64,000 bases of DNA from Phaeosaccion multiseriatum (taxonomy: Eukaryota; Protista; Ochrophyta, other classes), in assembly GCA_965112735.1 (NCBI GenBank), contig OZ218961.1:2046001-2110000 (forward strand), given 5' to 3'. Below, piece by piece: positions 9,140-46,806 of this stretch. The notes under the pieces were generated by a model, which was not told the origin of the DNA, did not search any database, and saw nothing but the letters and a program-made list of their open reading frames with translations. Positions within the stretch are counted from its first letter, which is position 1. Each line of letters begins with the position of its first letter. The position numbers were made by a program, and so were the translations under genes.

Positions 9140-9146
9140 CACTAAC

Positions 9147-9179
<33 letters not shown>

Positions 9180-10418
9180 TTTGTCTCTCGAGGCAGAGAG
9201 GGGAGGGGTAGTCACTACTACGGGGAGAAGGAGGTGGAAGAGGAAGGGGGGGGAGATGGAGAGAGACGCCGCAGGACAGAGCAGAGACGCGGGAGACGCG
9301 GGGGAAGATGGGAGAGGGGAGAGGGGAGAGACGCGAGGGGAGCGAGGCGAGAGAAGAGAGGAGAGGAGGGCAGCATGAGTGGTTGATGGTGATGCTAGCG
9401 CGTGCGTGTGTACGTACGTCTGCGCGGGTGGTCGCTACTGGGGAAGTACGAAGGGTGTCTGCCCTATCCTGTGGCCTTTTTGCCAGCGCAAAAGAGGGAG
9501 TGAATCAGTGAAGATCAGGGTGTCCGTACCACTCACCGGAAGTAGACGCCCCCTTTCCCCCAGCTACTTTGAGGGCTCAGTACACTTGCGTGGGTCGATG
9601 AGTTAGCCTTTATGCAGACACATTGTCTGGCAAGAGGTATATATCATCGGGACAGAGAGGAAGGAGAGGGAGAGACAGAGAGAGAGATAAAGCGGGAGAA
9701 AGAAAGATGTGAACAGAGGGAGATAAGAGAGATGAGACAGAAGGAAGAAGACAGACTAGACAGGAGGGACAGATAGAGAGAGAGAAGAGAGAGAGGGGGC
9801 GAGAGGGAGAGAGGACGGGGAAAGGACGGACGTGGCCGGGGAAGTGGCAGACCCTTCAGCGGAGCAGTCTCAGCCAGGAGGGAGTGGGGTAGGAAGAGCT
9901 CTTTTCGCCTGAGAACTGTATCGTCTTGTGTCGCCTTTTTCCCTCCCTCTGTCCCTCTCTCGGGCGGTCCCTCCCCCTCCACGCCCAACCCCGTCTCTCT
10001 CTCTCCGTCAACCCGCGAGGAGCAGTACGTAGCGAAGGTCCGGTTATCAGCTGACAGCTTCTCACCCCCTCTATCCCGGTGGGTAAAGTGAGAGCACTAC
10101 TTCACACGACATCGTCCTCATCCTTTTCGCGCTCACCTGTGTGCTTCTTGTGGTTTTGACGTGTTTCGTTTCCTCTCTGCTACTGTCTCAACTGAAATAC
10201 CGCAACTCAGAAGGTGAAGTTCACCCTCTTCTTCAGGGCCCTCCTTCGCGCGGAGCAGCACGATCGCAAAGGGACTGAAAAAAACACTGGGCGATTGGGC
10301 CCAACAGCCCACAGGTGGGAGAACATCCAGACGCGGAGTCCTGCCGAAACGTCGAAATTGCTCACCATCATGTTCTCACCTGCAAGTGTGCATTGGATAT
10401 CTGCATTGCTTAGGGACC

Positions 10419-11111
10419 ATGGAGGGCCACTACGAGGGAGATCTGGTGGACGGTGTTCGCGAAGGCAAGGGTTCCATCGTATGGGCAAACGGGGACCGCT
10501 ACGTGGGTGAATTCCACAACGGACTGCGCAGTGGGAATGGCGAGTTCACACACCACAAGACCGGGGTTGTGTATAAAGGGACTTGGAGGTTGAGCAAGCG
10601 GTGCGGCGAGGGGGAGCAGACCTGGCCTAATGGAGACCACTACACAGGGGGCTGGAAGGACGACGTGTTTCACGGACAAGGTACGCTGTTCCGCCGCAGT
10701 GGGCGCTACGTTGGGGGCTTCGTGGACGGGCTGCGCGAGGGCAGGGGTACGCTCTCGCTCAGCCACGGGGGGCAGTACGAGGGGCAGTGGCTCAAGGGAG
10801 AGATGCAGGGGGTGGGTAAGTACACCTGGCCCGACTTGGCTTGCTACGACGGGGAGTGGGAGAAGGGACTGAAGGAGGGGGAGGGCAATTTGCAGCTGCC
10901 CTCGGGGGAGAGGTACTCGGGGGAGTGGAAGACCGGACTGAAGGAGGGAGAGGGCGTGTGGCGCTACAACAACGGACGTCAGCGGCCAGGGGTGTGGAAG
11001 AAGGGCAAGCTTGTGCACTGGACGGGGAACGAGGTGTTTGGCAACGCCATTGCCAGCAAGAAGAGCAAACACAAGGCCGGTGGTACTTCCAGCCCCAAGA
11101 GACGAAGCTGA
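10419..11111 (+). CDS. MORN-repeat protein
   Basis: About 8 repeats of Y.G.W/F..G.R.G.G (YEGDLVDGVREGKGSIVWANGDRYVGEFHNGLRSGNG...YSGEWKTGLKEGEGVWRYNNG). ATG at 10419 directly after an AG acceptor-like site; stop at 11111. Confidence 0.92.
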   Translation: MEGHYEGDLVDGVREGKGSIVWANGDRYVGEFHNGLRSGNGEFTHHKTGVVYKGTWRLSKRCGEGEQTWPNGDHYTGGWKDDVFHGQGTLFRRSGRYVGGFVDGLREGRGTLSLSHGGQYEGQWLKGEMQGVGKYTWPDLACYDGEWEKGLKEGEGNLQLPSGERYSGEWKTGLKEGEGVWRYNNGRQRPGVWKKGKLVHWTGNEVFGNAIASKKSKHKAGGTSSPKRRS

Positions 11112-11925
11112 GCCTCCTCCTGCTGCTGATGCTGCTACCCCTCCTACTTCTTCCTCTACTACCGCCGCTCTCACGAGGTGGTAGTGAAAGGGAGATCTGT
11201 GGTCATGAGGGCAGTGTGCGCCCTTGCTCCCCACGTAGCTACACATGCAAGGGAGGGATAGATGCGAGGGAGGTAAATGCAGCAGCTGCAGGCCGGCAGA
11301 AGTGTCCATCTATTGATGGCCCAGTAGGGGGGTCAGTCCTGAGGGGATCTCCTTAGGATATCTCGGCCGACAGCGCGAGCCTGTGAAAGCCATTGAGTGG
11401 GCTTGTGCGGCACGTGACGGCGAAGCCCAACATCCGAACAGCCCATGCATATCCAAGGACAGGGAGTGAAGCCCAATCCCACTCGCTCGGCTCTCCCTCC
11501 TCACATGAGTGAGCACCGCTGGACAGTGACATCGGACAGGAGGAGAAGGATGATAGCACCTCAGCGCCTCCGCACCCGCCCACTAGCTTACTGGCAGGCG
11601 ACCAGGCGACATGCTAACACGGGGTAGGGGGCGAGCGAAGAGAAAAGAGTCGCAACCACCTCTTGGGGTCGTTAATTGGGGAGGAGGAAAAAGAGGTGCT
11701 GTTACTCTGCTGCTGGCCATGTAGGCATGTACTCGACCCCTGACGTGCAGTCGACCACATTCTCGATAGCAGCTACCACGCCGGCTGGCCCCGGCGATAG
11801 TAGATAGCAGATAGCACTTCAGGGGTCGAATGTACTGCAGCTGCTTCAAGACCGTGCATGCGTGCGCGTGCGTGTGTGTTGGGATGTTGGGGCGGGCCGG
11901 TCCTGTCAAGTGTTTGGGCAAATGT

Positions 11926-27653: not shown

Positions 27654-27883
27654 GTGGGACGACTTTGGTAATGTTATGTAATCTTACATGTACATCGAGG
27701 AGGACAGACTGAGGCTAGACTTTCTCCCTTTTTTTTGTTATTTAACCTTAAAACGAATACATTTAGATTAGAAGGTTTTAAGTTGTGTCAGTTAATTCAA
27801 AGTGAAAATAGCAGTGCGTGGGCTGTTATGGTTTGTAGTTTGTAGCTAAGCGAGAGTCTCCAGGGGCGGGGAAAGTGATGATG

Positions 27884-28017
27884 AAGGGGAAGTGGTTCCT
27901 TCCATGGTGAGAGGGAAGGAGGAGTGGGCAATTTGTGAGCCTCTCTTCAGCGCTGCGGAGGGAGGGGCGCGGTGCTGCTCGACCAAGCACTTCGCAGAGG
28001 GAAAGCGCCAAATCTGG
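27884..28017 (+). repeat. 135-bp direct repeat R, copy 1 of 3
   Basis: AAGGGGAAGTG..GCCTCTCTTCAGCGCTGCGGAGGGAGGG..CTTCGCAGAGGGAAAGCGCCAAATCTGG also occurs at 30061-30198 and 40266-40399. Confidence 0.9.
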
Positions 28018-28120
28018 GTATATTACTATGAAGTAAGACAATAAGCCGCTATCGATGGCACCGTGTGCGAAACTAGGCGGTGCTTTACGCAGGAGGGGCC
28101 GCGCTGTCTGCCCTGGTCAC

Positions 28121-29134
28121 TCAGTCCTCGCAGTCGCAGGGGTGACCATTGGCGTGCACCCACTGCTTCATCTCCTCGAAGGCGGCAAGGGGCATATCCC
28201 ATTGTCTACACCATCCATGACCGCCATATCTGTTTTTCACGACTTGTGGGCATGCCAACCTGTCCCAGGGACACATGACCTCCACCGATCGGAGCCACTT
28301 CAGCACAGAGAGGCTCTTGGCGCAATAAACTGCAGCAAAGCAGACATCTGTATCCCAACTGCACAGCTCCCGTACGTTTGCATGCAGCCACTGCAGCACT
28401 TCCAGATTGCCTTCCTGGGCCGCCCAAAAAGCCCCATCCCTCCACCCGCTCCTGTCATCTGCCGCCTCCATCTCAGCTCTGACCTTCGGATGATGCAAAA
28501 GCATGTCCAACGCTCGAATGTGCCCCGCACTTACAGCCTCCTCCCACATAGTCCATTCAGGAGGGCCCTCAAACTCGTCGGACAGCAGCCACGTAAGAAC
28601 CTCCACATTGCCGCACTTGCCAGCTTCGGCACAAATATAGCTCAGATCCCACGGGCACCGCTCCTTGTCGGGCAGGTCCTCCACTCGCAGCCATTGGAGG
28701 ATGCTCAGTGCGTGCTTTTCATTCCTCACCGCAACCATGCAAACGATCGAACCCCAGGCACACCCCATGCTGTGAAGAGCCTTGCAAATACTCACATCTC
28801 CGTACTGTGCCGCAGCCTCAAAAGTCTTCACACTCAGCGCATATCCGCACTTCCTGGCCCACCTCAAGCGCTCCACAGACTCAACCACACTCCTGATCCG
28901 CGTTGTCTTGGCCGGATGGAGACGTCTGTAGCGGCCCTTCCACTCCTTGCTCACCGCCGATATAAACAAGTCCTGGCCCCCATCAGTCCACTCCATCACA
29001 TTGACGAGAAGCACAGCCTGGGCCAGGGCCTGCTCACAAGCTTCGAATGTTTGAGCATCGCTTCCCTCGCCTCCAGCAAGGGCAGCGGGAACGAGAGAAG
29101 CTGCCACGGCGGCGCTGCAACCTTGCGCCTCCAT
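28121..29134 (-). CDS. Intronless F-box-like plus CPW-type (giant-virus-like) ankyrin-repeat protein, paralog 1
   Basis: Repeats of C(P/S/A)W(D)..C..A...GNLEVLQWL; N-terminal LFISAVSKEWK...SVERLRWAR segment resembles an F-box. ATG at 29134 (MEAQG) is the start shared with paralog 2; the ORF is open further upstream to 29359. Confidence 0.85.
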   Translation of the reverse strand: MEAQGCSAAVAASLVPAALAGGEGSDAQTFEACEQALAQAVLLVNVMEWTDGGQDLFISAVSKEWKGRYRRLHPAKTTRIRSVVESVERLRWARKCGYALSVKTFEAAAQYGDVSICKALHSMGCAWGSIVCMVAVRNEKHALSILQWLRVEDLPDKERCPWDLSYICAEAGKCGNVEVLTWLLSDEFEGPPEWTMWEEAVSAGHIRALDMLLHHPKVRAEMEAADDRSGWRDGAFWAAQEGNLEVLQWLHANVRELCSWDTDVCFAAVYCAKSLSVLKWLRSVEVMCPWDRLACPQVVKNRYGGHGWCRQWDMPLAAFEEMKQWVHANGHPCDCED

Positions 29135-30060
29135 CGAGGAATCGATGGGTGGGGCTGGCTTGAGCCTTTTGCCACCCTGCTTTCGGCTCGGTCCGTCCAT
29201 GTCTTTCGCGGCCCCACTCTGGATGACTGCTTCTTGACACGTATGATGTGCCGCGCGCGGCACGTATCGGGGGGAAGAAGCGCTTTTGCTTTCCTCAGCG
29301 AAGCCTGGTACGACGAGGGAAGGGAAGGGGGAGGGGGGGTGACAGGAGGGAAATGCCACGCAGTGTGAGAAAAAGGCGGCATCGGTACCTCATCTGCTGG
29401 TGGGCCTTTGCCGAGACCCCCCCCGAAGAGCCGAAGAGTGCTGAGGGCATGTTTACTTCGATGGACTCGATCACCATCTCCCAACACGGCCTCGACTGCT
29501 CTAAGCCTCCTCGAGCCTGCATACCTCAGCGCCACGCTCCTACCTGCTGCTTGGTCGAAGAAGGACGAAGGGATAAATATGGAGGGGGAATGAAAAAAAG
29601 AATTGGATCGAAATTGAGCGACATACAGGCAAGTTGGTTGCTCGGAGTCGGCCCTGTGATCAGAGGGCGTTTGGCGGGACGGCCGGCCTTTGGCTGCAGC
29701 CTTGCAGCTCTCTGCCTGGGGGGTATAAGTCACTCTTCCCTCAAGCAGCCCACCTACGACACCCCCTCTTTGTGCTGCACTCTATCTCATGCTGTCTGCG
29801 GCCATTCGTCCCTTCTGTTGTGTTGCTGGCTGTTGTTGTGCAGACACTTGACTTGCTTAAACAAGCCGCAAGTCGACGCAAGGTAGGACACAAAGTTCTT
29901 TTTTTTAGGCCTATCCCTATTCGCTTGGTACACCTCATCGACGCGGAGACTGCTCTGCTATTGGAGGGAAGGGGAAGTGCTTTCTCTCACGGTGGGAGAG
30001 AAGGGGGGAGGGAAAGTGCGCCCGGGAAAGTGCTTCCTTTCACGGTGGGAGGGAAGGGGG

Positions 30061-30198
30061 AAGGGGAAGTGCTTCCTTTCACGGCGGGAGGGAAGTAGGA
30101 GTGGGCTGTGGCTGTGTAAGCCTCTCTTCAGCGCTGCGGAGGGAGGGACGCGGTGCCGCTCGATCAAGCACTTCGCAGAGGGAAAGCGCCAAATCTGG
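30061..30198 (+). repeat. 135-bp direct repeat R, copy 2 of 3, preceded by two extra tandem sub-repeats of its 5' part
   Basis: Matches 27884-28017. AAGTGCTT(C/T)CT(T/C)TCACGG(T/C)GGGAG occurs three times in 29975-30090. Confidence 0.9.
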
Positions 30199-30267
30199 TT
30201 TTAAGGAGGCGATGTGGGCCATTTGGTGCCATCCAAGCTATCGCCCGGGGAGCATCAACGTCTTGCC

Positions 30268-33200
30268 ATGTTGCTCCGGCGCAGTAACGAGCAGGCGCTG
30301 AGAGCTGCGGAGGCCAGGTCAGTTTGCAGTGTCAGTTTGCAGGGTCAGTTTGCAGTGTCAGTTTGGCTCGGGGGAGTTGGAGGAAGTGTCTCCTGTTGGC
30401 ATTGTCAGAGCGAGGCAGGCTTCGAGGTCTTTAGCTTTTCCAAAATAGCATGGATGGCAGGGGCAATGGATGGCAATGGATGGCAGGGGATGGCAATAGA
30501 TGGCAGGGGATGGCAGAGATGACGGAGGACTTGCAGGGGATGGCGAACTGCAAACTGTAGTGACGTGCGAGGCAAGCTCACAAGCAAGCAGTGCTCACTT
30601 CAACCCAGTCCACCTCACCCCACCTCATCCCACCCCACTCCATCTCACCCCACCCCACCCCTACCCCACTCCACCCCACCCCACCCCCCATCCCAAACAC
30701 TTTATATCAAACGATAACATCAACAATACCATCGCCCGTGTGACTCACAGGTACAACAGAGAAGTGCCCAGGAGGAGGCCGCAGAGCACCCACAGTCAAA
30801 GTGGGGGGGGTGGAGGAGGGCAGGAGCACGAGGACACCGGCGAGGGGTCCCCTCCCGTCTGGATGGGGGAGGGAGGAGAAGACAGATACGAGCAGCAAGC
30901 AAGCGTCGGTGATGCAGTTGGTGATACGGCAGCAGCGGCGGCAGCTGAACTCTACCTGCGCTACGGTTTCGGTTCGGCGGAGAGCTTTGACCCCACCCTG
31001 CTCCATCCAGACGAGCTGCTAGCCGCCGCAGATGGGCTGTTGCCTGCTAAGCCTGTTGGTGATACAAAGGCCAGGGCAGTTGGTGGTACGACATCAACAG
31101 CAGGAGCAGCAGCTGGTGATACAGACACAGCAGCAGCAGCAGCAGCAGCAGCAGTAGGTGCTACGCCAGTCGCCAACGCTGGGACCACAGCTCAGCAGGA
31201 TGGGGCAAGATCAAGGCCACGCACACGAGGAGGAGAAGGCCCCAACCCTCCCCCCTCCACTTCCCCTGCCCCTGGTCCTGGTCCTGGTCCTGTTCCTGGT
31301 CCTGGCCCCGATCGGTCCGTCGATCCCGGTGCGCTACGCTCAGCAGGGGCGAGTAGGCGTCCACCTCCCCCGCGCGTATCCACTGCGCCTGCGGCCGGTC
31401 ACACCAGCCATCGCTACTCGTCCAGAGGGTTGTTAAAGGCCACCCGAGAGGCACTTCCGGCCTTTGCGTTGGAGGGGAGGGGGTGGGATTTTGGGATGGC
31501 AGCGGACGGAAGGGGGAGGAGGGCGGTGAGGGGGAGGGACTTTGGTGGGGAGTTTGTGAGTGAGGAAGTGGCGAGGTTCAGCCGACAGGAGAAGGAGGAG
31601 GTGAGAGGATGGAGGGAAGGAGGGGAGGGAAAGGAAAGGGGGATTGTTCAGATTTGGGCTTTCTCTCCTCTTCCCCACTGCCATCCACTGCCATCCACTG
31701 CCATCCACTGCCATCCTGATGCCTCTATTGTGCATATTTGCCCATTCACCTCCCTCTTGCTGCTGCTGTGCTGTATCCCCAACTTGCCTACTATGCGGGG
31801 TATATCCGCAACTGCTCTGACATGTTGTGTATCACCACCTGCTCTGCCTCCTGTCGTCAGCTGTGGCAAGCGTTTCAACAGCACCGCGAGCTCAGCAGCG
31901 TGGACCGAGCGGCCTTGCTGGAGCTGGCCATCGCCACCCATCCACAGCAGTTGGTAATACAGCAGCAGCAGCAGCAGCACCAGCACTCGCTGCCCACAGA
32001 CGGGTCCTCGCTGATACCCCCCGGGGGACAGATTCCCCTGGGGGGGTTAGCCCGGGGGGGTCAGTCGTCCTCCCTGGAGAGCTCGCTCCCCTCCTACCCG
32101 AGCTCGGAAGAGCTTCTCCGGTACCTGCCCAAGGCAAAGGTACGACACCACATGTCGAGGCTATCGATATATAATACCGAGTTCATTGACCATCGAACAT
32201 CGAACATCGATACCCCACTCCAAATTCGCGATCCCCTCCTTCCGCCCCCCTCCCTTCATGCTTGCCCGTCATACACCCCCATCACCTCTCTTAACAATGT
32301 CCCCCACCCTCCCCTCCCTCCCACCCCCTTCTCTTTCCACCCCATACCTCCCCCTTACCACCCTCTCCCTCCCACCGCCCTTTCCATCGTTCAACAGGCG
32401 GACAGGCTTCTCTCTGCACTGCTGAGCAAGCTTGCACAAGATACACTCCCGCCCCCCATTGGACATCCCCCCGGGGTGGAGCAGCAACAGCTGCAGCCGT
32501 TGGTGATACAGCAGCAGCAGCAGCAGTTGGTGATACAGCAGCAGCAAGGCGCGATGGTGATTCCCAACGACCCCACCTCCTCCTCCATTGGGGAGCAAGG
32601 CAGCCAAGTCAGTCAGCGCAGTGGCAGCACAGACGCCGACACGGCCCACTCCCCTCTGGACGGCGCCTCGATTGCCCCCTCCACCGCGTCGACTCGGAAT
32701 CCTTTCTCCTCCTCCTCCTCCTCCTCCGCTGCCGCCGCCACCGCCGCTGCTGCGGGTGCTGCTGGTGCTGATGCTGCTGCTGCCTTAATCCCCTCGGTTT
32801 CAGGCGCCCCTCCCTCTCCCTTCGACTCGCAATCCTCGCAGCTCGACATGTACATGTGTCTACCGTTAGATGTCGGTTCGTTGGAGGAGGGGGGGGAGCA
32901 GGAGGGACGGGGGGGGGATGAGGGGGAGAACTTAGCTGACGGCTCGCAGGTGGGAAGGAGGAGGGGCAGCATGCGCGACGGAAGGCCATCCCGAGGGGGG
33001 TCGGCATCCCCGGGGGGAAGGCAGCAGCTAGCGTCCTCCCCGGGGGAGGCAAAGCCGATGTCGGCATCGATGTCCTATCTACTACCGAGAGGAGGAGGAG
33101 GAGGAGGAGGAGGAGGAGGAGGAGGAGGGAAACGACTGGGCGGCTCTAAGCGGCCACTGCCCGCGGAAGACGGTCTCGACCTTTCGCTTGGGGAGAGGAG

Positions 33201-36200
33201 AGGGAGGGGGCACCCCCGGGGGGCGGACTCCAAGACGTCCAGAAGTGGGTCAGATGGAGCTCGCGCTACTACCGCAGCTGCTACCGGGGCCCGACGCCGG
33301 GGTCATACAGCGGTTGGTGGTACAGCAGCAACAGACTGGGAATTGCGTGGGTCAAGGGAAAGAGGAACAGTCCGGACACCCCGTACCGCGGCAGCAGAGG
33401 CGGCAGTGGCCAGCAGGACGCGACCCAGTACGACACAACAACCCCGACTCGGAGTCACACTTGGCGGTCCGATTGCCCCGGGGGGGAGGGCGGCGACCCA
33501 GGAGGGGGCGGGGGCGGCGGACCTGCTGCTGCTTGCCGCCGCCACTGCTGCTGCCACTGGTGCTGCCACTGGTGCTGCGGCCCCCCTGGGCGGGCTGGCG
33601 CTGAGTGAAGCCGAGCAAACACTCGTGTTAGAGGCCGTTCTAGCTGGGGATGGAGAAGGCAGGGGCTCGGGTTCGGACGTTTCAACCGTTTCAACCGCCA
33701 AGGACAGGGCCAGGAGGAAGAGGGCGGCGGCGGCAGAGAGGTTTGTGCCAACGGATGGGTCGGGGATGCAGAGGCGGAGGAGAGAGGAAGCCGACAGACG
33801 AGAGCAGGGGGCAGAGGCAAGGAGGAAGAGGATCAGAGAGCGCTCAGCAGCGGCAGCAGCGGTGGCGGCGGCTGCGGGGCCTGCCCCTGCTCCTACCAAG
33901 CGCACCAAGGCAGAGGCAGGTTATACTTGCGCTTCGTCTCCTCGTTCTTCGCGTCCTACACCGGGTGAGACTTTGCCTAACCGGAGCAGCGGCCGTGAAG
34001 GGCGGAGGAGGGCTCGAGGAAGAGAACGAGAGCAAGCGCAAGCGCAGGAAGACGTCCTCGCCGCCGAGCCTTCACTGTCCACGGAGAGGGCAGCAGAGGG
34101 CCCCTCCCCCTCCCTGCACACCTCACTGGAGGCTTCCCTCAACGCCTCGCTGGATGCTTCGCTGGACGCCTCGCTCAGTGCCTCGTTGGAGGATAGTGCA
34201 GACGGTCACTCCGCCGGCAGGCTGCCATCCATCGAAGGAGGTGAGTGAGGCAGTGCTTGGTGTCAGGCGATGTCTGGTGATCGATCAAGCAGGGCCTGCT
34301 ATCAGTCAGTCAGTACCTGGTGTCAGTCAGTTCCTGGTGTCAGTCAGTCAGTGCCTGGAGTCAGTCAGTCAGTCCGTCAGAAGGTGGCTTCGTGTGTTAG
34401 GGGAAAGGGTTCGGTCCCAAGGGGGCGATGCTGTGGGGGAGCACCCGATTGAAAACGCCTACTCACTACTCTCTCTCCCTTCCTTCCTTTCTTCCTTCCT
34501 TCCTTCCTTCCTTCCGCCCTTCCTTCCGCCCTTCCGCCCTTCCGCCCTTTCTTCCTCCCGTTCTGCCGTCTTTCTTTCTTTCTTTCTCTCCTTCGCAGCC
34601 GAGTCTGAACAAGAAGCGCAAGACGGAGGAACACGAAGGAAGAGTAGATCCTTGCCCTCCTTGGGGTCGTCCTTAGAGGCGACTGGAGACGACGTTCTAG
34701 ATGAAGAAGGAGAAGGAGACGAAGAAGAAACACGGCGAGGAGGAGGCGGAGGAGGAGGGGGGGGGGAGGATAGTATAGAGAAGAACGAGGAGAAGCAGGA
34801 GGGGGACAAAGGAGGAGAGGAGGAAGAGGTGCAGGAGGAGCAGCAGGAGGAGGAGGACGAGAGGAAGGAGGGGGGGAAGATGCAGCGGTCTCCTACTGCG
34901 GCTCTGTTTGTTATGGACACAGCCGTGGAAGTACTCGCCGATCTGGTGGGATGGGACGAGCTAGGAGAAGGAGGAGGAGGGGGAGGAGGAGGAGGAGGAG
35001 GAGGAGGAGGAGGAGGAGGAGGAGGGGGAGGAGGAGGAGGGGGAGGAGGAGGAGGAGGAGCAGGAGGGCGACGAGGGGAGGGAAGGGGGAGGCGTGGAGG
35101 GGGAGGTAGGGGATCGAGGCGACTACTGGCACAGGCTGGCGACGATGCCGACGATTCGAATGCCTCGGACTCCGAGGCAGAAGAGAAAATGGGGGTTGAA
35201 TGTTTCCGAGGCGGGGTGGGTGGGCAGCACCAAACAGCCCGAGGAGGAGATGGGGAGGCCTCCGTAGGCGGCTCGGTAGGCAGTCTGGGGAGCGAGATGG
35301 ATTGCAGGAGTGGCTTCGGTTTAGGCGGGGGGGGAGGGGGAGGAAGTTACAGAGACAGCAGCGTGATTGACTCGACTGTGGCCAGGCTAAGGGAGGGGGG
35401 AGGAGGTGGAGGGGTGGGAGATAGCCTTATCGACCTGGTCTCGCTCAGTCCTCAGCAACAACATCCATCCGACTTGCCGGGGAGTATTCTGAGTGCACTG
35501 ACGGGAGGAGGAGCAGGAGGAGGAGCAGGAGGAGGAGGAGGAGGAGGAGGAGCAGGAAGAGGAGGAGGAGGAGGAGGAGGAGGAGGAGGAGGAGGAGGAG
35601 GAGGAGGAGGAGGAGGAGGAGGAGGAGGAGGAGGAGGAGGAGGAGGAGGAGGAGGAGGAGGAGGAGGAGGAGGAGGAGGAGGAGGAGGAGGAGGAGGAGG
35701 AGGAGGAGGAAGAGGAGGAGGAGGAGGAGGAGGAGCAGGAAGAGGAGGGGGAGCAGGAGGAGCAGGAGGAGTAGGAGGAGCAAGAGGAAGCTCACCTCCA
35801 AGTCGGGAGGGCAGGAACAGGCGAGCCCGAGGAGGCGGCGGTGGCAAGGCAGGGGTTGGAGCGCCCCCGGGGTCTTCGGGTAAGGGCAAAGCCAAGGGCA
35901 GCAAGGGAGGGGCGAAAGACGCCAACAACGCCAACGCGAGGGGCCGGTCTCTGGGCAGAGGGAAAACGACGCTACCGAAGACCGAGGCACCCGGCAGCAA
36001 GGTGAAGGGACCGGCGAAGAGCGAGGCAGCAGCTGTGGCAGTTGGTACTACAGCGGCAGCAGCAGCAGCAGCAGCAGCAGCTGGGGGGACGGATGGGAGT
36101 AGGCGGCCCAAGTCTCGGGAAGGCCGACCCAAGAGTGGAAAGGACGGGAAGGACACCAAGAGGTCTCGCTCGGCGTCTGCGAAGAAACGCCCGGGCTCCC

Positions 36201-37018
36201 GGGGGGCCGGTGGTGGCTCCAATCGACCACCAGATGGCAGCGGATGGTCAGGTTCTCCGAGTAAGAAGGAGAGCAAAAAGGCCGTGAAGGAGCGGGCGGA
36301 GAGGGAGGCGCGAGACAAGCGAGAGGCAGAGTTGCAGGAGGAGAAGGAGCGGAGACAGAGGGACAAGGAGCAGGCAATGAAGGACAAGGAGAGGGAGAAG
36401 AAGGAGGAGGAGCGGAGGAAGAAGAGGGAGAAGGACGCAGCGAAGCGGGAGCTGGAGGCGAGAAGGAGGGCCCGAGAGCGAGCGGCGATTGACAAGCAGG
36501 AGCTGGCCGACTTGATGAAACCGCCACTCACATTTGTCGACGACGGATTCGACGAGGCGGCGTGGCGCAGGGCGCTCACCAGGGAGGACCGTCTTTCCGA
36601 CTCGGAGCCGGACAATTCCGATTCCGATTCCGTGGATTCCAATGTCGTTTCCCACCCCGCTTCAAAATCGGAACCGCAGCGTCGGTCTCGCGGTGGCGGT
36701 GGTGGTGGTGGTCGGGGGGGGGTGGTGCTCCCCCGGGGGATCAAGGGTAGCAGCAGTAGTCGAGTCCCCGTGCCAGCAGTAGCGTCTGCTTCTTCCCGCT
36801 CCCCATCGCCCGCGCCCCATCCGATAACCACGACTCGGAAGCCTGTGAAGGGTGTGCCGAAGACGGTTTCGGAAACGGTGGATGTGGTGGCGGGGCGTGA
36901 AGTAACCTCCGAGCAGCTCCAGGGCTTGGCGTCGAGCTCCACCCGGGCCCAAGCGGCACAGGCGGCAGCTTCTTCTGCCGCCAGGCGCTCCGGACGGAGA
37001 CTTCTTCGACTCGGAGGA

Positions 37019-37049
<31 letters not shown>

Positions 37050-38116
37050 GAGGGGATGTTGTTCGGACCGTGCGAGAGGCGCGAGCCATGCTGGGCATCA
37101 TGGACGCCGCCTCAGTGGGGTCGGGGTCGGGATTGGGAGGCGATGCCGCTTCAGGCAGCGGTGGTGCTCTTGCTGCTGACGGTGCTGGTGATGCTTCCTC
37201 TCTTCTCTCTTACGGCGACGGTGGTAGCCTAGGAGGAGGAGGAGGAGGAGGAGGAGGGGGGGGAGGTGAGGGGGGTCGGGAGGAGGGTTCGGACAACGGC
37301 TCTTGGAGGATGGGTGCACCTTTCAAGGAGCCGTTGGTGCTCCTGCGCAGGGCGAGGCCACAGGCAGATACGCACCCGTCGGTGCTGCGGGAGAAGGACC
37401 GCCTGGAGAAGGTGTCACAGACTCATTCGCTGTGGGATTCCACGGCGCTGGGCATCCCGGAGGAGGAGAACGAAGGGAGGGCTGAGCTTGCCGAGATGGT
37501 GATGGGCAAGGCTGGCAAGGAAGGGGACGGAGAGAAGGAGGGCGAGGAAGAGGAGGGGGGGGGGCGCGGAGGAGGAGGGGAAGAAGAAGAAGAAGGAGCA
37601 GGAGCAGGAGCAGCAGGAGGAGGAGGAGGGCGAGAAAAGGGAGGAGGAGGTGAAGCGAGAGGAGGAAGTGAAGAAAGAGGAGGAGGAGGAGGAGGAGGAT
37701 GCCGATGACGACGAGGTTGAGGAGGAGGACCATGACGAATCCGACGACGATTGGTCTTCCTCTTCCTCCGAAGACGGCGCCGACAGCCACACAGCGTCGG
37801 ATTCTCTGGACAGGGCCAAACAGGCAGAGAGGAAGGGGCGGGCGTTGCGAAGGAGGCAGCGGAGGGAGTTACGAAAGGACCCGGACGCCAGTATTATCGA
37901 CTTCTCCAAGGAGGGACGGATGGACGCGAGGTTCAAGGGGTTGAGGAGGAGGGAGAAGGAAGCGCGGGCAGCGGCGGCGGCCGGGCAGCTGTCGCAGAGC
38001 CTGAAGAAGCCCTGGGAAGGTGAGTTCGAACTGCAGGAGTTGGTGATACAGCAGCATGAGGGGGGAGGGGGGGGGGGGCGGGGTGATCACTGTACCACAC
38101 ACACACAACCACACGT

Positions 38117-38160
<44 letters not shown>

Positions 38161-40014
38161 CGCGTGTATATCGACGTAGTGATGCCCACCCTCATGTGTC
38201 CATCGTCGAGCCGATGCTGCCTGCCTGTCTGTCACCGTACATGTGTTGCCCTCCTCCCCACATCTGTCCTCCTCTGTTCGCCAACATCATACTGCCACGA
38301 AAGTGCATGTGCCCCTTCCGTGGTAGCTATGCCACCCCTGCTCCTCCTTTCCTTTCCTCTAAGCCCCCGTTGCCCCCTACCCTCATCCTGACACCCTGTG
38401 CTCTGGTGGTGGTATGTCCTGACACTCTGCACGCATGCCCTCAGCCGTGGACTTCCGAGACGGCGTGACGCAAGACATGCTCCGGAGAGCCGCGGGGAAG
38501 CCCTTTGTAAAGGGCCACGGACAGCGCAAGAGGTCGGCACAGGGTAAGTGAGGAAGGAAGGAAGGAAGGAAGGAAGGAAGGAAGCAAGGAAGGAAGGAAG
38601 GAAGGAAGGAAGGAAGGAAGGAAGGAAGGAAGGAAGGAAGGGAGGGAGGGAGGGAAAAAGGCGAACGCTGCGAGGTGGTAGTGGATGGGTGGATGGCAGT
38701 GGATGGGTACCGGCGGTGAGCGGGGCATTGATGGGAGAGGGGTGATGGGTACAAGACGACACATACACATGCGGGGCAACAACACAAAGCGAGGACCGGG
38801 CATCCGTCCTGACCTCTACCCTGACCCTGACCCTGACCCTGACCCTGACCCTGACCCTGCCCCTTGACCCTGACCCTGACCCTGACCCGGACCCTCACCC
38901 TCACCCTCACCCTGACCCTGACCCTGACCCTGACCCTGACCCTGACCCTGACCCTGACCCTGACCCTGACCCTGACCCTGACCCTGACCCTGACCCTGAC
39001 CCTGAACCCGACCGTCACTCTTACTAGACGGTCTGGACGCGAGTGAGCAGCTTATCGTGCCCGGCAGCGACCGTCTCATCAACTACATGGCAGGTGAGTG
39101 AAGCCTGCCTACTAGACGTACTACCTGCGTACTCCTACGTAATAGCGACGTACTGGCTGCTCTCGTGAAAATATGAAAAGGGGGAGGTTTTCCAGCAGCC
39201 TCGCCTTCCGTTGGCTCGGCCTTCCCCTTGTTGGCCTGATTGGAGTGGGTAGGCTCTGATGGTACTTCCGCGTGACTGCAGCTCAGTGCCCGCAAACGCA
39301 TAGAGAACTGTAGCGAGGGAGATGCTGAGCAAAGCAGAGCCGCACCCACTGCCGCCTCATCCACTGCCATCCCCTCCGCTTCCACTGCCATCCCCGTCCA
39401 CTGCCATCCCACCCCATCCCCTCCACCACAGACGTGGGAGAGGTTCGCAAGCAGTTCGAGCGTCTGCGCGAGATCGAAGGGATGGAGCGCAGGGTCGTGG
39501 ACATGGCCAACCGCGAGAGAGAGAGGTCAGTCGGTGTCAGTGTCAGTGTTTGTGCCAAGTGCAATGGCCAGAAAGGTGCTGCTCCATGCCATCGGCGGCT
39601 GGAAGGGATAGGCCTATCCCCATTGGGAGACCTCATCGACGCGGACACTGCTCTGCTACTGTATCACCAACTGCTCTGCAGAGTACAAGGAGCGTCTTCG
39701 CTTGGGCCTGGGCCTTCCCTTGCGTCGGCCTGCCTCTCACCACCTCACCCCACCCCGACCCCGCTCAATCCCACCCTCAAAACCCCAACCAGGTTAAGAT
39801 AGAGGCCCGCAAGGGTGGACTCGCGCTGGCTGCAGAGTCCGAACAGTACGACAAGACCGAGGAGCTCGACGGCCTCGGGAGCGAGGCGCAGCAGCAAGAG
39901 AGGGGCAACCGGTTTAACACCGTTGTTGGGGAGGGAGGGAGGGACTGGGGCAACGAAGACGACGACGAGGAGGAAGAGGACGAGGGGGAGGAGGAGAGCA
40001 CAGATGGCACTTGA
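30268..40014 (+). CDS. Very large low-complexity/coiled-coil hypothetical protein; multi-exon, one apparent frameshift
   Basis: Phase-compatible exons: 30268-30317, 30751-31600, 31861-32139, 32398-34240, 34599-38019, about 38445-38543, 39027-39092, 39432-39525, and a last exon near 39793-40014 whose phase is unresolved. The frame changes at a G10 run near 37555. No recognisable domain. Confidence 0.6.
35505..35790. repeat. Exonic (GGA)n tract encoding a very long poly-Gly run
   Basis: About 285 bp of nearly pure GGA in frame within ORF 33650-37708. Confidence 0.9.
38818..39004. repeat. (CCCTGA)n hexamer array just upstream of a 3' splice site
   Basis: About 30 units ending about 20 nt before the TACTAG acceptor; a degenerate copy lies at 42311-42437. 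Confidence 0.92.
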
Positions 40015-40186
40015 GGGGGGGGGTCGCTACAGATAGTGTCTAGCTGCTGTATAGATAAGGGGGGCAATGGCAGCGAGCGAGGCAGGATTCCGGGGGCAGT
40101 TGATCGGCAGTTGGTTGGACGCGAAGGTTGGAGGAGACTCTTCCCTTCAATGAGTACATGTTAAGATCAGAATAAAAAAATAGTAC

Positions 40187-42258
40187 TTAATTTCAATTTG
40201 AAATAGCAGTGCGTGGAGTTGAGGAGAGTGAGAGTCTCCAGCCAGGGGCGGGGAAAGTGATGATGAAGGGGAAGTGGTTCCTTCCATGGTGAGAGGGAAG
40301 GAGGAGTGGGCAGTGTGTGAGCCTCTCTTCAGTGCTGCGGAGGGAGGGGCGTGGTGCTGCTCGATCAAGCCCTTCGCAGAGGGAAAGCGCCAAATCTGGT
40401 TATATTACTACGAAGTAAGACAATAAGCTGCTATGTATGGCACCGTGTGTGCGAAACTAGGCGGTGCTTTACCCAGGAGGGGCCGCGCTGTCTGCCCTGG
40501 TCACTCAGTCCTCGCAGTCGCAGGGGTGACCATTGGCGTGCACCCACTGCTTCATCTCCTCGAAGGCGGCAGGGGGCATATCCCATCCACGACCGCCATA
40601 TCCGCTTTTCATGACTTGTGGGCATGCATACCTGTTCCAGGGACACATGACCTCCTCCGATCGGAGCCACTTCAGCACAGAGAGGCTCTTGGCGTCACGA
40701 ACTGCAAAAAAACAGACATTTGCATCCCACCTGCACAGCTCCCGTGCGTTTGCATGGAGCCACTGCAGCACTTCCAGATTGCCTTCCGCGGCCGCCCAGA
40801 GAGCCCCCCACCTCCACCCGGCGGGGTTATCTATCGCCTCCATCTCAGCTCTGACCTTCGGATGATGCAAAAGCATGTCCAACGCTCGAATGTGCCCGGC
40901 CCTTACAGCCTCCTTCCACATATACACAAAATGAGGAGGGCCCTCAAACTCGTCGGACAGCAGCCACGTAAGAATCTCCACATTGCCGCACTTGCCAGCT
41001 TCGGCACAACTATCGCTCAGATCCCACGGGCACCGCTCCTTGTCGGGCAGGTCCTCCACTCGCAGCCATTGGAGGATGCTCAGTGCGCGCCTTTCATTCC
41101 TCACCGCAACCACGCAAACGGACCGATCCCAGGCACACCCCATGCTGTGAAGAGCCTTGCAAATACTCACATCTCCGTACTGTGCCGCAGCCTCAAAAGT
41201 CTTCACACTCAGCGCATATCCGCACTTCCTGGCCCACCTCAAACGCTCCACAGACTCAACCACACTCCTGATCCGCGTTGTCTTGGCCGGATGGAGACGT
41301 CTGTAGTGGCCCTTCCACTCCTTGCTCACCGCCGCTATAAACAAGTCCTGGCCCCCACCAGTCCACTCCATCACACTGATGAGATGTACAGCCTGGGCCA
41401 GGCCCTGTTCACAAGCTTCGAAGGTTTGAGCATCGCTTCCCTCGCCTCCAGCAACAAGGGCAGCGGGAACGGGAGAAGCTGCCACGGCGGCACTGAAACC
41501 TTGCGCCTCCATCGAGGAATCGATGGGTGGGGCTGGCTGGAGCCTTTTGCCACCCTGCTTTCGGCTCGGTCCGTCCAAGTCTTTCGCGGCCCCACTCTGG
41601 ATGACTGCTTGACACGTATGATGGTGTGCCGCGCGCGGCACGGATCGGGCGGGGGAACAAGAAGAACTTTTGCTTTCCTCGCTCTGCGAAGCCTGGTATG
41701 ACGAGGGAAGGGAAGGGGGAGGGGGGATGACAGGAGGGAAATCACGCGCAGTGTGAGCAAAAGGCGGCATCGATACCTCCCCTGCTGTTGGGCCTTTGCC
41801 GAGAACCCCCCCCCAAGAAGAGGGGGAAGGAAACTCGATGGACTCGATCACATCTCCCGCCCAGCACGGCCTCGACTGCTCTTAGCCTCCTCCAGCCTGC
41901 ATTCTTCAGCGCCACACTCCTACCTGCTTCTTGGTCGAAGAGGGACGGAGGGATAATTGTGGAGCGGGAAAGAAAGAAATTATGGAGAAAAGCCAGCCAG
42001 GCATGTTGGTTGCTCGGAGTCGGCCCTGTGATCAGATCAGAGGGCGTTTGGCGGGACGACGGCCGACCTTTCGAACCTTTGGCTGCAGCCTTGCAACTCT
42101 CTGCCTGGATCGCTCTTCCCTCCAGCATCCCACCTACGACCCCTTCTCTTTGTGCTGCACTCTATCTCATATTGTCTGCGGCCTTTCTTCCCTTCTTTTG
42201 CTACTGCTGTTGTGCAGACACTTGACTTCAACAAACAGCAAGGTACACATGTTCTTTT
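40187..42258. repeat. Segmental duplication unit A' (contains repeat R copy 3 at 40266-40399)
   Basis: Colinear with 27792-29902. Confidence 0.93.
40505..41512 (-). CDS. Intronless F-box-like plus CPW-type ankyrin-repeat protein, paralog 2
   Basis: Same architecture as 28121-29134 with an intact frame and two in-frame indels in the repeat region. Shared ATG at 41512; the ORF is open upstream to 41851. Confidence 0.85.
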   Translation of the reverse strand: MEAQGFSAAVAASPVPAALVAGGEGSDAQTFEACEQGLAQAVHLISVMEWTGGGQDLFIAAVSKEWKGHYRRLHPAKTTRIRSVVESVERLRWARKCGYALSVKTFEAAAQYGDVSICKALHSMGCAWDRSVCVVAVRNERRALSILQWLRVEDLPDKERCPWDLSDSCAEAGKCGNVEILTWLLSDEFEGPPHFVYMWKEAVRAGHIRALDMLLHHPKVRAEMEAIDNPAGWRWGALWAAAEGNLEVLQWLHANARELCRWDANVCFFAVRDAKSLSVLKWLRSEEVMCPWNRYACPQVMKSGYGGRGWDMPPAAFEEMKQWVHANGHPCDCED

Positions 42259-42310: not shown

Positions 42311-43609
42311 CCTGACCCTGACCCTGGTGACCCTGACCCCGACCCCGGCCGACCCTGACCCTGACCCTGACCCTGGCTGACCCTGAACCGCACCCTGACC
42401 CTGGCTGACCCTGACCCTGGCCCTGACCCTGACCCCGACCGTCACTCTTCCTAGACGGGCTGAACGCGAGTGAGCAGCTTCTCGTGCCCGGCAGCGACCG
42501 TCTCATCAACTACATGGCAGGTGAGTGAAGCCTGACTAATAGCGACGTTCTGGCTGGGCCTGCTTCTATGAAAAGGGAGAGGTTTTCCAGCAGCCTCGCC
42601 CCCTCTTGGCTCGGCCTTCCCCTTGCTGACCTTATTGGAGTGGGCAGGCTCTGATGGCACTTCCGCGTGACTGCAGCTCAGTGCCCGCAAACGCATAGAG
42701 AACTGGCTGTAGCGAGGGAGATGCTGGCTGAGCAAAGCAGAGCCGCACCCACTGCCGCCCCATCCACTGCCATCCCCTCCGCTTCCACTGCCATTCCCAT
42801 CCACTGCCATTCCCATCCACTGCCATTCCACCCCATCGCCTCCAAAGACATGGGAGAGGTTCGCAAGCAGTTCGAGCGTCTGCGCGAGATCGAAGGGATG
42901 GAGCGCAGGGTCGTGGACATGGCCAACCGCGAGAGAGAGAGGTCAGTCAGTGTTAGTCAATGTCAGTGTCAGTGTCAGTGTTTGTGCCAAGTGCAATGGC
43001 CAGAAAGGTGCTGCTCCATGCCATCGGCGGCTAGAAGGGCTTGTTGACCTATCCCCATTGGTAGACCTCATCGACGCGGAGACTGCTCTGCTACTGTATC
43101 ACCAGCTGCTCTCCGGAGCACAAGGAGAGTCTTCGCTTGGGCCTGGGCCATCCCTCGCGTCGGTCTGCCTCTCACCACCCCACCCCACCCGACCCCGCTT
43201 AATCCCACCCTCAAACCACCAACCAGGTTAAGATAGAGGCCCGCAAGGGTGGACTCGCGCTGGCTGCAGAGTCCGAACAGTACGACAAGACCGAGGAGCT
43301 CGACGGCCTCGGGAGCGAGGAGCAGCAGCAAGAGAAGGGCAACCGGTTTAACACCGTTGTTGGGGAGGGAGGGAGGGACTGGGGCAACGAAGACGACGAG
43401 GAGGAGGAAGAGGACGAGGGGGAGGAGGAGAGCACAGATGGCACTTGATGACGGAGGGGAGGGGGGGGGGGTCGCTATAGATAGTGTCTAGCAGATAGAA
43501 AAAGGGGGGCAATGGCAGCGAGCGAGGCAGGCTTCCGGTGGCAGTTGATCGGCAGTTGGTTGGACGCGAAGGTTGGAGGAGACTCTTCCCTTCAAAGAGT
43601 ACATGTTAA
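42311..43609 (+). pseudogene. Duplicated 3' fragment (last exons and 3' flank) of the 30268-40014 gene
   Basis: Near-identical to about 38810-40164 (EQL.VPGSDRLINYMA, GEVRKQFERLREIEGMERRVVDMANRERE, VKIEARKGGLALAAESEQYDK). All upstream exons are absent and the copy starts in the CCCTGA array. Confidence 0.85.
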
Positions 43610-44291
43610 CATCATAATACAAACTTTATGAAGACAAGGAAGTAATGAGCGGCTGGGGATTGGGGGGATGGGGGTGACGAGGGCCTTGGAGGATGGCCAC
43701 TCCTGTTGCACTGGCTGGGATATATACATAGAACAAAAGAGGAGGAGGGAGGAGGAGGAGGGAGGAGGAGGAGGAGGGGGATGAGGGGGAAAGGGGATAC
43801 GTTGCTTAGCGCCATCGCCTGCGGGGAAGGCGGCAGTAAAGACGGTCAGAGAGCAAGCCGAGCGGCAGACGCTCGGCGATAGATCGAAAACGAGTTTTCA
43901 GGAAGTGGGGAGTGGGAGAGACCAAACCCGGTAGTAGGGCGGCGGTTGGCTGCTTGAGACCCGGCCGCATCTCGGTGGCCCTAGTGCGGCCCGGCCGGGT
44001 CACGGGCACCCTCCTAGCTATGGCTGCCTTCGTGGCTCTCGAGTGCCTTGGCGCTCGCTCGGAATAGACTTTTCTTCTGGGGGTGGCTGGCGGCGATGCC
44101 CCCTTTGTTGTGGTCGCCTGCTTGTCTCGTTACAGTAGATTACGTACTATACTATGGGTGTATAGCAAGGTGAAAATAGGTCCAGCTGTTGTAGGTCGAT
44201 GCCATTTGTGATATGCGAATTACTTACGCACGTCGTTAAGGAACCTGGGTTCCCCTCTCAGAGCCTGGTTGTGTAAGGACAGAGCGGCCAG

Positions 44292-45219: not shown

Positions 45220-46806
45220 ATGTCTGCGCCACAATATCCTGCTGATGTGGCTCGGAGAAGTACTTTGGGGACGGCGGGGTTGAGAGTGGTGGCCGGCCTT
45301 TTCACGATGGAGAAAGCCCTGTGGGGCGTGAGCAGGGAGGTGGATGAGGTCACCTCCCGCACTCTGGTGATCAACGCCGAGATGCCTGAAGACGTCCAGC
45401 AGCGTATGCTGAGCATCCTGGAGCAGCAGCAAGCGCATGAAGGAAAATGCCACACTCTTCTTGGTTCTTCCCGGCTGCGGAGGTGGGGGGTGCGGGGGGG
45501 GGAGCAGCTTGAATGCGCGCAGGGGCAGCGAAGTCAAGAAGCTGGACTGAATGGGAGGAGAGGCTTCTTCCGCGCCGCCGCTGTGCTCCTCGGTCTGAGG
45601 AGGGGACTTCCCGAACTTACATGTGCGGACGAGGCCCTCGTGGCGAGGGCCTTGGTGCTATTGCCCAAATCGATCAAGCGCGTTTGTTTTTCCAACTTTT
45701 TCAATCAGCACGTGGCGGTGCCTAGCACAGTGGAGGAGTTAATAGTCGGTTGGCGATACAATCGGCCAATTGCTCTCCCACCCTCTCTGCGGAAACTCAT
45801 CTTTCTCAACGGCGCGGTGTTTGACCAGACGATTGGCCTCTTGCCGAGTACGCTGGAAGTAGTGGTATTTCCCTCGAGATTTGATGAACCCGTTGTCCTT
45901 CCGAGCTCGCTCAAGGAGGTGGAGTTCGGGCTGTATTTCGATCGCCCAGTCGTTTTCCCTCCTTCGGTGAGGAAGATACGCTTTGGTCAGAACTTTAATC
46001 GAGCAAATGTGGTCCTGCCAACCTTGCTGGAGGAACTGGTCTTGGGTCTCCGCTACTCTCAGCGCATCGTCTTGCCGTCTTCGCTCAAGAGGATCACATT
46101 CGGATCATTCTTCGATCGTTCTGATGTCACTCTTCCGAGCTCGCTGGTGGAGATTGAGCTAGGTTTTCACTTCAATCAACACATCGTCTTTCCTGCGTCG
46201 GTCAAGAAGATTACCATGGGGGCGTTTTTTAATAGGCCCGATGTGGTCTTGCCCGGGGGGCTGGAGGAGCTGATTCTGGGTGATCGGTTCAACCAGCCCA
46301 TCGTGCTGCCCAGGTCGCTGAAGAAGCTCACCTTTAGCTCTCGCTTTAATCAGCCACTGGACCTGCCACCTGCGCTCGAATCGCTGGTCTTCACGTACGG
46401 CTTTCAAGAGCCTCAATTCAACCTCCCTCTGGACCTCCCTGCTTCTCTTCGGGTTCTCAGCCTGGGAAGGGCGTACACCCACCCCTTGGAGAGTCTGCCG
46501 GCTGGCCTGCAATGGCTTGGGATTGGAGACCACTGCCGGCTGCCTGCGCATCTACCCGAGGGGCTCAAGGTGAACTACCTTGGGCCTCCGTTGGCACCCT
46601 ACGATGGGCCCTCTTACCGGCACCCCGACGATTCCGATTCCGATTCCATGGACGATGCCTTCTCCGATCTCGAAGGGGGCGTGGACAATCGAATCGTCAG
46701 TGCAGACATCTGGGCGCTTCCCATGGTGACGTACCCCGCACTTGCCTACTCCGGGCCACACGAAAACGAAGCTTCCTCCGCCCACCGCGACGAACTGTAT
46801 TTATAG
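45220..46806 (+). CDS. Intronless FNIP-type leucine-rich-repeat protein
   Basis: About 14 units of F(N/D)xPxxLPxSLxxLxFG (e.g. RFNQPIVLPRSLKKLTFSSRFNQPLDLPPALESLVF). First ATG at 45220, stop at 46806. Confidence 0.9.
   Translation: MSAPQYPADVARRSTLGTAGLRVVAGLFTMEKALWGVSREVDEVTSRTLVINAEMPEDVQQRMLSILEQQQAHEGKCHTLLGSSRLRRWGVRGGEQLECAQGQRSQEAGLNGRRGFFRAAAVLLGLRRGLPELTCADEALVARALVLLPKSIKRVCFSNFFNQHVAVPSTVEELIVGWRYNRPIALPPSLRKLIFLNGAVFDQTIGLLPSTLEVVVFPSRFDEPVVLPSSLKEVEFGLYFDRPVVFPPSVRKIRFGQNFNRANVVLPTLLEELVLGLRYSQRIVLPSSLKRITFGSFFDRSDVTLPSSLVEIELGFHFNQHIVFPASVKKITMGAFFNRPDVVLPGGLEELILGDRFNQPIVLPRSLKKLTFSSRFNQPLDLPPALESLVFTYGFQEPQFNLPLDLPASLRVLSLGRAYTHPLESLPAGLQWLGIGDHCRLPAHLPEGLKVNYLGPPLAPYDGPSYRHPDDSDSDSMDDAFSDLEGGVDNRIVSADIWALPMVTYPALAYSGPHENEASSAHRDELYL

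Follow-up and report, generated by a model that had tools for sequence, protein, structure and literature searches.

Evidence of diversifying selection on the predicted binding face of paralogous F-box-like/ankyrin genes in the alga Phaeosaccion multiseriatum

Two paralogous genes in duplicated cassettes

We analyzed two paralogous genes, denoted A and B, in a 64-kb stretch of the genome of the ochrophyte alga Phaeosaccion multiseriatum (contig OZ218961.1 of assembly GCA_965112735.1, positions 2,046,001 to 2,110,000; hereafter, the window, in whose coordinates all features are given) and found that the differences between them fall preferentially on the predicted binding face of the encoded ankyrin repeats. 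Both genes are intronless open frames read from the minus strand. Gene A (28121..29200) encodes a protein of 359 amino acids that consists, in this order, of a low-complexity N-terminus, an F-box-like segment, an array of CPW-type ankyrin repeats and a cap with conserved Cys and His residues. Gene B, its paralog, occupies 40505..41512 when counted from the ATG that is common to the two copies, and its open frame runs on to an ATG at 41770 (40505-41770, 421 amino acids). The common ATG is located at 29134 in A and at 41512 in B; an extra in-frame ATG of A at 29200 is matched by a TTG in B. Because the 5' stretch above the common ATG contains frame-breaking indels between the copies, this codon is the likeliest start. 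In A and B, a basic stretch of the N-terminus that resembles a nuclear localisation signal (29156-29194, minus strand) lies upstream of the common ATG and might therefore not be translated in B.

Each gene is embedded in a duplicated cassette of about 2 kb that additionally includes ~650 bp of upstream and 270 bp of downstream sequence (27849..29854 around A and its counterpart, 40227..42228, around B, both on the minus strand). The cassettes are 88.3% identical and share identical nucleotide blocks of 63-115 nt. The sequence-only reading, an earlier interpretation of this DNA made without database searches, had recognized two intact, intronless paralogs with long identical blocks, and the 5' ends that it gave are those of the common ATG. 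The divergence along the cassette is uneven, at 0.14-0.17 in the upstream flank, 0.049 in the 3' flank and ~0.04 at silent sites. No third copy was detected in the window by tblastn. Close paralogs did not emerge from protein searches (BLAST identities did not exceed 38%, a second search gave one weak short match, and a third reached at most 53% over the repeats), neither A nor B being itself in the collection, and an exact 23-mer search of metagenomes yielded 3 loci, none of which codes for a relative of A or B.

Ankyrin repeats and C-terminal cap

The repeat array of A (28256..28846, minus strand) is of the CPW type, with hypervariable codons at positions -10, -9, -6, -5, -2 and -1 from the repeat glycine, for example, codons 151, 152, 188, 216, 217, 255, 258, 262, 284, 285, 289, 292, 293 and 315. 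Pfam detects Ank_4 in A and B, with 31.2 and 28.4 bits against a curated cut-off of 22.7. The structure model, with a predicted local distance difference test score (pLDDT) of 86, shows a stacked helix-turn-helix ankyrin fold; a single-sequence model (pLDDT 53) was not used. Ankyrins rank at the top of the structural search, the best match being the Espin ankyrin domain (Z 15.4, root-mean-square deviation (rmsd) 4.6, 245 aligned residues). Given that designed pentatricopeptide repeat (PPR) proteins appear near the head of the Foldseek list, we considered whether the repeats might read nucleic acid through a PPR-like position code. The PPR rows, however, reach a template modelling (TM) score of only ~0.29 at an rmsd above 12, ankyrin-type proteins lead the full structural search, and the variable residues are a mixture of aromatic, acidic and basic ones, so that we rejected this role, the most improbable of those discussed here.

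The array is followed by the C-terminal cap (28124..28255 in A, minus strand), in which Cys, His, Cys and Cys are conserved. The cap profile scores strongly on 5 of 287 proteins, namely A, B and three proteins of Chrysoparadoxa (all five were also used to build the profile), and on none of the 53 fetched loci, of which 50 are viral. The four residues are kept across the five proteins and, speculatively, could form a zinc site. Prenylation of C-terminal cysteines in a CaaX box was considered and rejected because the five capped proteins end differently. Among the fetched proteins, the N-terminus, the repeats and the cap occur together only in the three of Chrysoparadoxa australica (CAM9526596.1, CAM9164428.1 and P0189, all unannotated), which share with A and B the N-terminal segment, the CPW repeats and the Cys/His cap but are only ~33-35% identical to them, and in which the repeats are regular.

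Amino acid replacements concentrate on the inner helices

Alignment columns 151-361 (206 gap-free codons), a region selected post hoc in the sequence-only reading, contain 36 amino-acid-changing and 3 purely silent codons as well as 2 in-frame indels, of 1 and 4 codons, exactly as had been counted by hand, and all eight motif pairs quoted in that reading are present. Among the 39 differing codons, 15 differ at 2-3 bases. Because the region was chosen post hoc, we discount the p-value of 0.007 obtained for it. We then relied on formal codon alignment and models of the ratio of nonsynonymous to synonymous substitution rates (dN/dS), which the sequence-only reading had itself proposed. By the Nei-Gojobori method, dN/dS amounts to 1.7-2.1 over the entire gene, to 0.6-0.75 within the first 150 columns and to 2.5-3.2 in those that follow, and the pairwise codon model M0 gives 1.93 for the whole gene (p=0.047). 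The comparison of M2a with M1a yields a likelihood-ratio test statistic (LRT) of 53.6, in which ~8% of the sites take a ratio that is very high and poorly bounded, and the others one of 0.96.

Clustering of the changes along the linear sequence is weak (p=0.035 for the whole gene and 0.15 for the C-terminal part); the true signal is the position inside the repeat. Variable positions were fixed, by entropy, from 1,352 homologous repeats, and comprise the six inner-helix positions listed above and +3, +10, +11 and +12 on the outer side; the repeat anchors were placed manually, the sixth being that of a half repeat only. An earlier "face" set held offset -11 and was partly picked after the data had been seen, and only the set derived from homolog entropy is relied on here. 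Between A and B, 18 of the 36 inner-helix positions differ versus 2 of the 24 outer-helix positions (p=0.0006), and offset -9 is changed in all 6 repeats. With this partition fixed, dN/dS is 12.5 at the 36 face codons compared to 1.1 at the 297 others (LRT 46.7), and 11 of the 15 multi-hit codons are among these 36 codons of 333. The ratio at the face stays at 8.4-10.6, with an LRT of 20-37, when indel-adjacent codons are removed, double mutations are allowed or the sixth repeat is left out. When the register is shifted, the number of changed face positions is highest at 0 (18), and lesser maxima at -4 (16) and -8 (15) agree with the expectation for one helix face. The clustering around the first helix of each repeat that had been noticed by eye holds with respect to the position within the repeat and is weak as linear clustering.

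In the structure model, the variable positions map to the inner helices or to the residues directly preceding them; the face was assigned by repeat register and secondary structure rather than by exposure in atomic coordinates. Inner helices and loops form the binding surface of ankyrins (PMC4986451). We therefore consider it very likely that the predicted binding face of these proteins is under diversifying selection, as had been proposed. As a control of the method, the proportion of nonsynonymous differences at the face (pN) is below that of synonymous ones (pS) in all but one of the 14 pairs that related ankyrin open reading frames (ORFs) form on viral-collection contigs (13 of 14). The lone exception is a pair of tandem CPW-ankyrin paralogs on a 302-kb contig (L004, one frame, near 8300-11000), with a face pN of 0.48 exceeding the pS of 0.23.

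The codons outside the face show a dN/dS of ~1 between A and B. The scaffold is indeed near-identical, as had been observed, but this is because the copies are young and not because the pair shows purifying selection. This background ratio, together with the mosaic flanks and with replacements in the scaffold that are private to A and missing from nearly all of the sequencing-run contigs described below, is in keeping with an explanation without selection, namely, that the repeats are relaxed or dead and that multi-nucleotide mutation, mutational hotspots or short tracts converted from old paralogs produced the differences. Several results contradict such an origin. A hotspot model with dN/dS held at or below 1 is rejected (LRT 12.3, p=0.0005); the inner helices alone, given a free silent rate, still have a dN/dS of 6.8 (p=0.0002); and an LRT of at least 20 remains with double mutations allowed. 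Both frames are open, the three coding indels all keep the frame whereas the flanks contain many other indels, and the changes track the helical periodicity. Had old conversion tracts been imported, silent sites among the variable codons ought to have diverged as well; their divergence within the inner helices is 0.061 (2 changes in 43 codons) versus 0.034 elsewhere, an increase so small that such import is not the explanation. CpG decay is ruled out, with only 8 of the 71 differences being of the CpG type, as are hotspots and double-nucleotide mutation by the models above, and misalignment near indels, given that the signal persists without the indel-adjacent codons. Nor does the pattern resemble that of a diversity-generating retroelement target: all four bases and third positions vary, with no specificity for adenine, and a third copy is missing from the window. 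Overall, the explanation without selection is largely refuted, and we regard it as very unlikely.

Further family members in sequencing runs

Five public runs from two samples, none of which is an RNA run (a result without bearing on expression), contain the stretch (21-58% of its words), and contigs at least 80% alike to it were mapped from four of them, with alleles unphased and summed read depth not taken as a measure of copy number. The number of mapping contigs ranges from 324 to 2341 per run. In each of the four runs, 34-48 contigs run into mutually unlike sequence directly after the stop codon, which indicates a family of at least tens of members, a figure that allelic doubling might inflate and that is not an exact number. 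For 28305-28475, mapped in 3 runs, we considered all 33 alleles present at 15% or more. Across codons 250-289, amino-acid-changing alleles that are absent from both A and B occur in 8 of the 40 codons; 6 of these 8 are among the 10 codons that vary between A and B (p=0.0012), and the remaining 2 adjoin variable ones. The EGNLEVLQWLHAN core (codons 263-275) has silent variants only. A fast-changing antagonist is the best explanation for replacements that recur in many copies on one set of surface positions.

Other homologous protein pairs (68-88% identity, at least 3 scorable repeats) show more differences at the face than on the outer side in 23 of 23 cases (of 35 pairs listed), although the pairs are non-independent and these very proteins served to define the positions; we treat this apparent bias, found by sequence comparison, as a lead only. 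In one of the runs (X5), the cassette flanks (27849-29854) are covered about one contig deep and the coding part deeply, whereas in three others (X1-X3) the flanks are deep as well. Although depth is not copy number, this suggests that the cassette spread recently in one sample only.

The N-terminal segment and SKP1

Residues 58-92 of A (28925..29029, minus strand) fold into three helices in the structure model and make up an F-box-like segment with predicted contact to SKP1; by alignment to A, the corresponding segment of B is 41300..41404 (minus strand). At the N-terminus of several more distant homologs, an F-box is present by Pfam. In an HHalign comparison, the N-terminal profile of the subfamily matched a profile of 12 of these homolog F-boxes (68% probability, E 5e-5), with a score of 22.9 against a shuffled maximum of 10.8, thus beating 100 of 100 shuffles. 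For residues 52-105, the top three atlas clusters are all F-boxes (best 0.85), which we take only as a lead. No F-box/SKP1 structures are found among the fold-search rows, but these lists are filled by the repeats, so that the N-terminus was barely tested.

Co-folding of residues 51-148 of A with a stand-in SKP1 gave 0.78 compared to 0.04 for the best control, with a contact agreement of at least 91% between runs and a partner pLDDT of at least 81; supplied alignments are not used by the co-folding tool. The mark applied is passed by 51 of 78 solved versus 2 of 108 mismatched microbial pairs and, for eukaryotes, by 39 of 65 versus 2 of 126. The closest predicted contacts (F79, I80, A82, V83, S84, K85, W87, V68, E110 and R111) are all the same in B. 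On the strength of these models, a degenerate F-box is predicted to dock on SKP1, and A and B are likely to be SKP1 adaptors. Twelve contigs of the viral collection (L054-L065) encode SKP1 homologs, including two records that carry CPW-ankyrins, plus a third such record.

Proposed function and alternatives

These observations can be combined in a scheme in which A and B are young copies in a multi-copy, intronless ankyrin family whose face is under strong diversifying selection and which supplies substrate receptors of SKP1-CUL1-F-box (SCF) ubiquitin ligases directed against foreign proteins of viruses or parasites; we put the chances of the complete scheme at slightly better than even. The protein is predicted to be loaded onto SKP1-CUL1 through helices at its N-terminus (residues 60-88 and, in addition, 97-133). 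By analogy with ankyrin structure and given the pattern of selection, the variable inner-helix face would pick the substrate, which, as in other SCF systems, SKP1-CUL1-RBX1 would then ubiquitinate while it is bound to the face. Local duplication and point mutation, probably together with recombination among copies, would generate new specificities, and copies would be born and lost. The targets are probably foreign, with viruses or parasites as the likeliest source of the antagonist, and pathogen recognition is what we infer for A and B.

Several points weigh against this scheme. Pfam F-box models (PF00646/PF12937) match neither A nor B, whether whole or as N-terminal segments, at E-values up to 10, and our own F-box hidden Markov model (HMM) likewise matches neither sequence alone. 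Helix 1 of the segment lacks the Leu-Pro start. Nor is the segment conserved from one copy to the other: of its 35 codons, 7 carry replacements and 1 a silent change, and 4 of these changes fall at predicted SKP1 contacts, unlike the classical pattern of nematode F-box families. The stand-in SKP1 comes from a viral-collection locus (L064, confirmed by Pfam) and is not the alga's own protein, and copy A only was co-folded; because F-box/SKP1 complexes have already been solved, passing the mark signifies likeness rather than binding and may derive from the tool's prior exposure to such complexes. The dN/dS estimate derives from one pair with 8 purely silent differences. With a background ratio of ~1, either copy may be drifting or decaying, and the replacements private to A suggest that the copies may be under relaxed constraint. 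The upstream flank, with about 3 times the divergence seen at silent sites and in the 3' flank, implies that recombination made the cassette a mosaic. Finally, nothing in the data links A or B to infection.

The weaknesses that concern the N-terminus would be accounted for if the F-box were vestigial and A and B were selected binders that block, sequester or act as decoys for foreign proteins, without ubiquitination: Pfam finds no F-box, the segment changes between the copies, and the co-fold pass may mirror solved complexes. This explanation is at odds with the retention of the LF-x-x-AVSK-x-W core, which contains the closest predicted contacts and is unchanged between the copies except for one Ser/Ala exchange, and with residues 93-146, which include the second predicted contact patch and show 0 replacements in 54 codons. 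We consider it rather improbable. With respect to the F-box-like N-terminus noted in the sequence-only reading, and to the profile search and SKP1 co-folding that it had proposed, the profile comparison at the subfamily level, the atlas and the co-fold agree in silico with an F-box, while a direct Pfam match and conservation between the copies are lacking.

The same SCF-receptor mechanism could also be directed at the alga's own fast-changing targets, in self/non-self or mating recognition, of which plant S-locus F-box proteins are an example, or in a conflict with proteins of transposons or drive elements. Diversifying selection by itself names no antagonist, and the copies are intronless and multi-copy, as would fit this possibility; moreover, the repeats of fungal NLRs with the same signature serve allorecognition (PMC4986451). 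However, face-biased divergence is found also in unrelated pairs of algal and protist CPW-ankyrins, which fits a general enemy better than the mating system of one lineage, and no toxin-like partner gene was recognized beside A or B among the ORFs scanned. Own targets thus appear unlikely, albeit less so than a vestigial F-box, and SCF receptors for foreign proteins remain the function that we favor.

Relation to known systems

A close parallel is provided by the expanded F-box families of nematodes (fbxa and fbxb of C. elegans; PMC8120010), large families in which, as is predicted for A and B, an N-terminal F-box is combined with a substrate-binding domain under positive selection and for which antimicrobial ubiquitination has been proposed. 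A and B differ in that they belong to an alga, would bind substrates through an array of CPW-type ankyrins, have an F-box-like segment that escapes Pfam and have a putative role in immunity. Among ochrophytes, the candidate receptors of Ectocarpus (LRR-ROCO and NB-ARC-TPR; PMC3341825) are likewise repeat proteins with a selected concave ligand-binding face and rapid birth and death; as described there, they consist of one-repeat exons subject to exon shuffling and contain GTPase or NB-ARC signalling domains, whereas A and B have a single exon, lack signalling domains and are predicted to lead directly to degradation. In the ankyrins of Podospora NLRs, positive selection also acts on inner helices and loops, along with recombination among repeats (PMC4986451). 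Unlike these fungal proteins, A and B possess no NACHT/NB-ARC or effector domain, and their repeats are divergent within a gene, the variation lying between gene copies.

The proposed logic of an adaptor that joins ankyrins to an F-box is shared with F-box/ankyrin proteins (PMC5871332) of giant viruses, poxviruses and Legionella (AnkB), and amoebal giant viruses have the same repeat class as A and B (BFVD matches). A and B, in contrast, belong to the nuclear genome of the host and encode a cap specific to algae, and the viral-contig pairs are mostly under purifying selection at the same positions (the 13 of 14 pairs mentioned above). A search of the full-text literature, with most subscription journals and supplements outside its scope, found no description of positively selected F-box/CPW-ankyrin genes in algae and nothing that joins Chrysoparadoxa with ankyrins. 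The logic has a precedent in nematode F-box genes, and repeat receptors under selection have been described for Ectocarpus and fungi.

Ankyrin expansions in other microalgae have been left without a function in Chloropicon (PMC12301720) or tied to cold adaptation in Bathycoccus (PMC11409870). It is possible, though less likely than not, that the large CPW-ankyrin expansions of microalgae are a germ-line repertoire of natural SCF receptors resembling designed ankyrin repeat proteins (DARPins), an intracellular immunity in which proteins of viruses or parasites would be degraded by means of the very F-box/ankyrin tool that giant viruses direct against their hosts. The recognition of viruses and parasites by algae is largely an open problem, for which the locus provides one ankyrin family with a position-specific signature of selection and predicted SKP1 docking. 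An annotation curiosity is thereby turned into a testable hypothesis of immune or non-self recognition with named residues, and the locus hints at a natural library of ankyrin binders.

Genomic surroundings

The window is eukaryotic, with microsatellites and, among the 12 ORFs scanned, host genes or pieces thereof (prolyl-tRNA synthetase, MORN, PPR and FGAR amidotransferase); 7 further ORFs in the window had no Pfam match. The 3' end of a neighboring host gene, in exon-like blocks, lies to the left of cassette B (39009..40178, plus strand), and a direct duplicate of it, 6.3% diverged, lies to the right (42436..43612, plus strand). The coding-like blocks of the two are nearly identical, and the duplicate begins, with the breakpoint, inside a TGACCC-type microsatellite. 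Upstream of A, a remnant (29907..30203, no strand assigned) consists of a 57-bp piece of the host gene and copies of the cassette 3' flank, the trace of a further, deleted unit. The locus is shaped by local duplication and deletion.

These surroundings bear on whether A and B could have been carried in by a mobile element or an endogenous giant virus and diversified to the benefit of that element. Such an origin would be in keeping with the repeat type and fold, which match proteins of pandoravirus, cedratvirus and pithovirus, and with the absence of introns from A, B and an FNIP-repeat gene 3.5 kb from B. It is contradicted by the distribution of the cap motif, which 3 Chrysoparadoxa proteins contain but none of the fetched loci does, by the N-terminal profile, which reaches at most 17.6 bits on these 53 loci, by the ordinary host genes among the scanned neighbors, by the host-like base composition and by a cassette without a recognisable transposase. 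No viral hallmark gene was detected among the window ORFs scanned, and a viral search with A alone gave no match. A viral or mobile origin is accordingly highly improbable, and the label "virus-like" used in the sequence-only reading applies to the repeat class only, the closest relatives in whole architecture being the Chrysoparadoxa proteins.

The FNIP-repeat gene (45220-46806, plus strand; Pfam FNIP E 2.6e-42) has an N-terminal stretch that resembles the end of an F-box and is without a Pfam match. FNIP repeats belong to a class common to protists and giant viruses. Upstream of this gene, there is a direct repeat of ~80 bp (44531-44608/44625-44702, 81%), and a similar stretch is present at 11730-11813.

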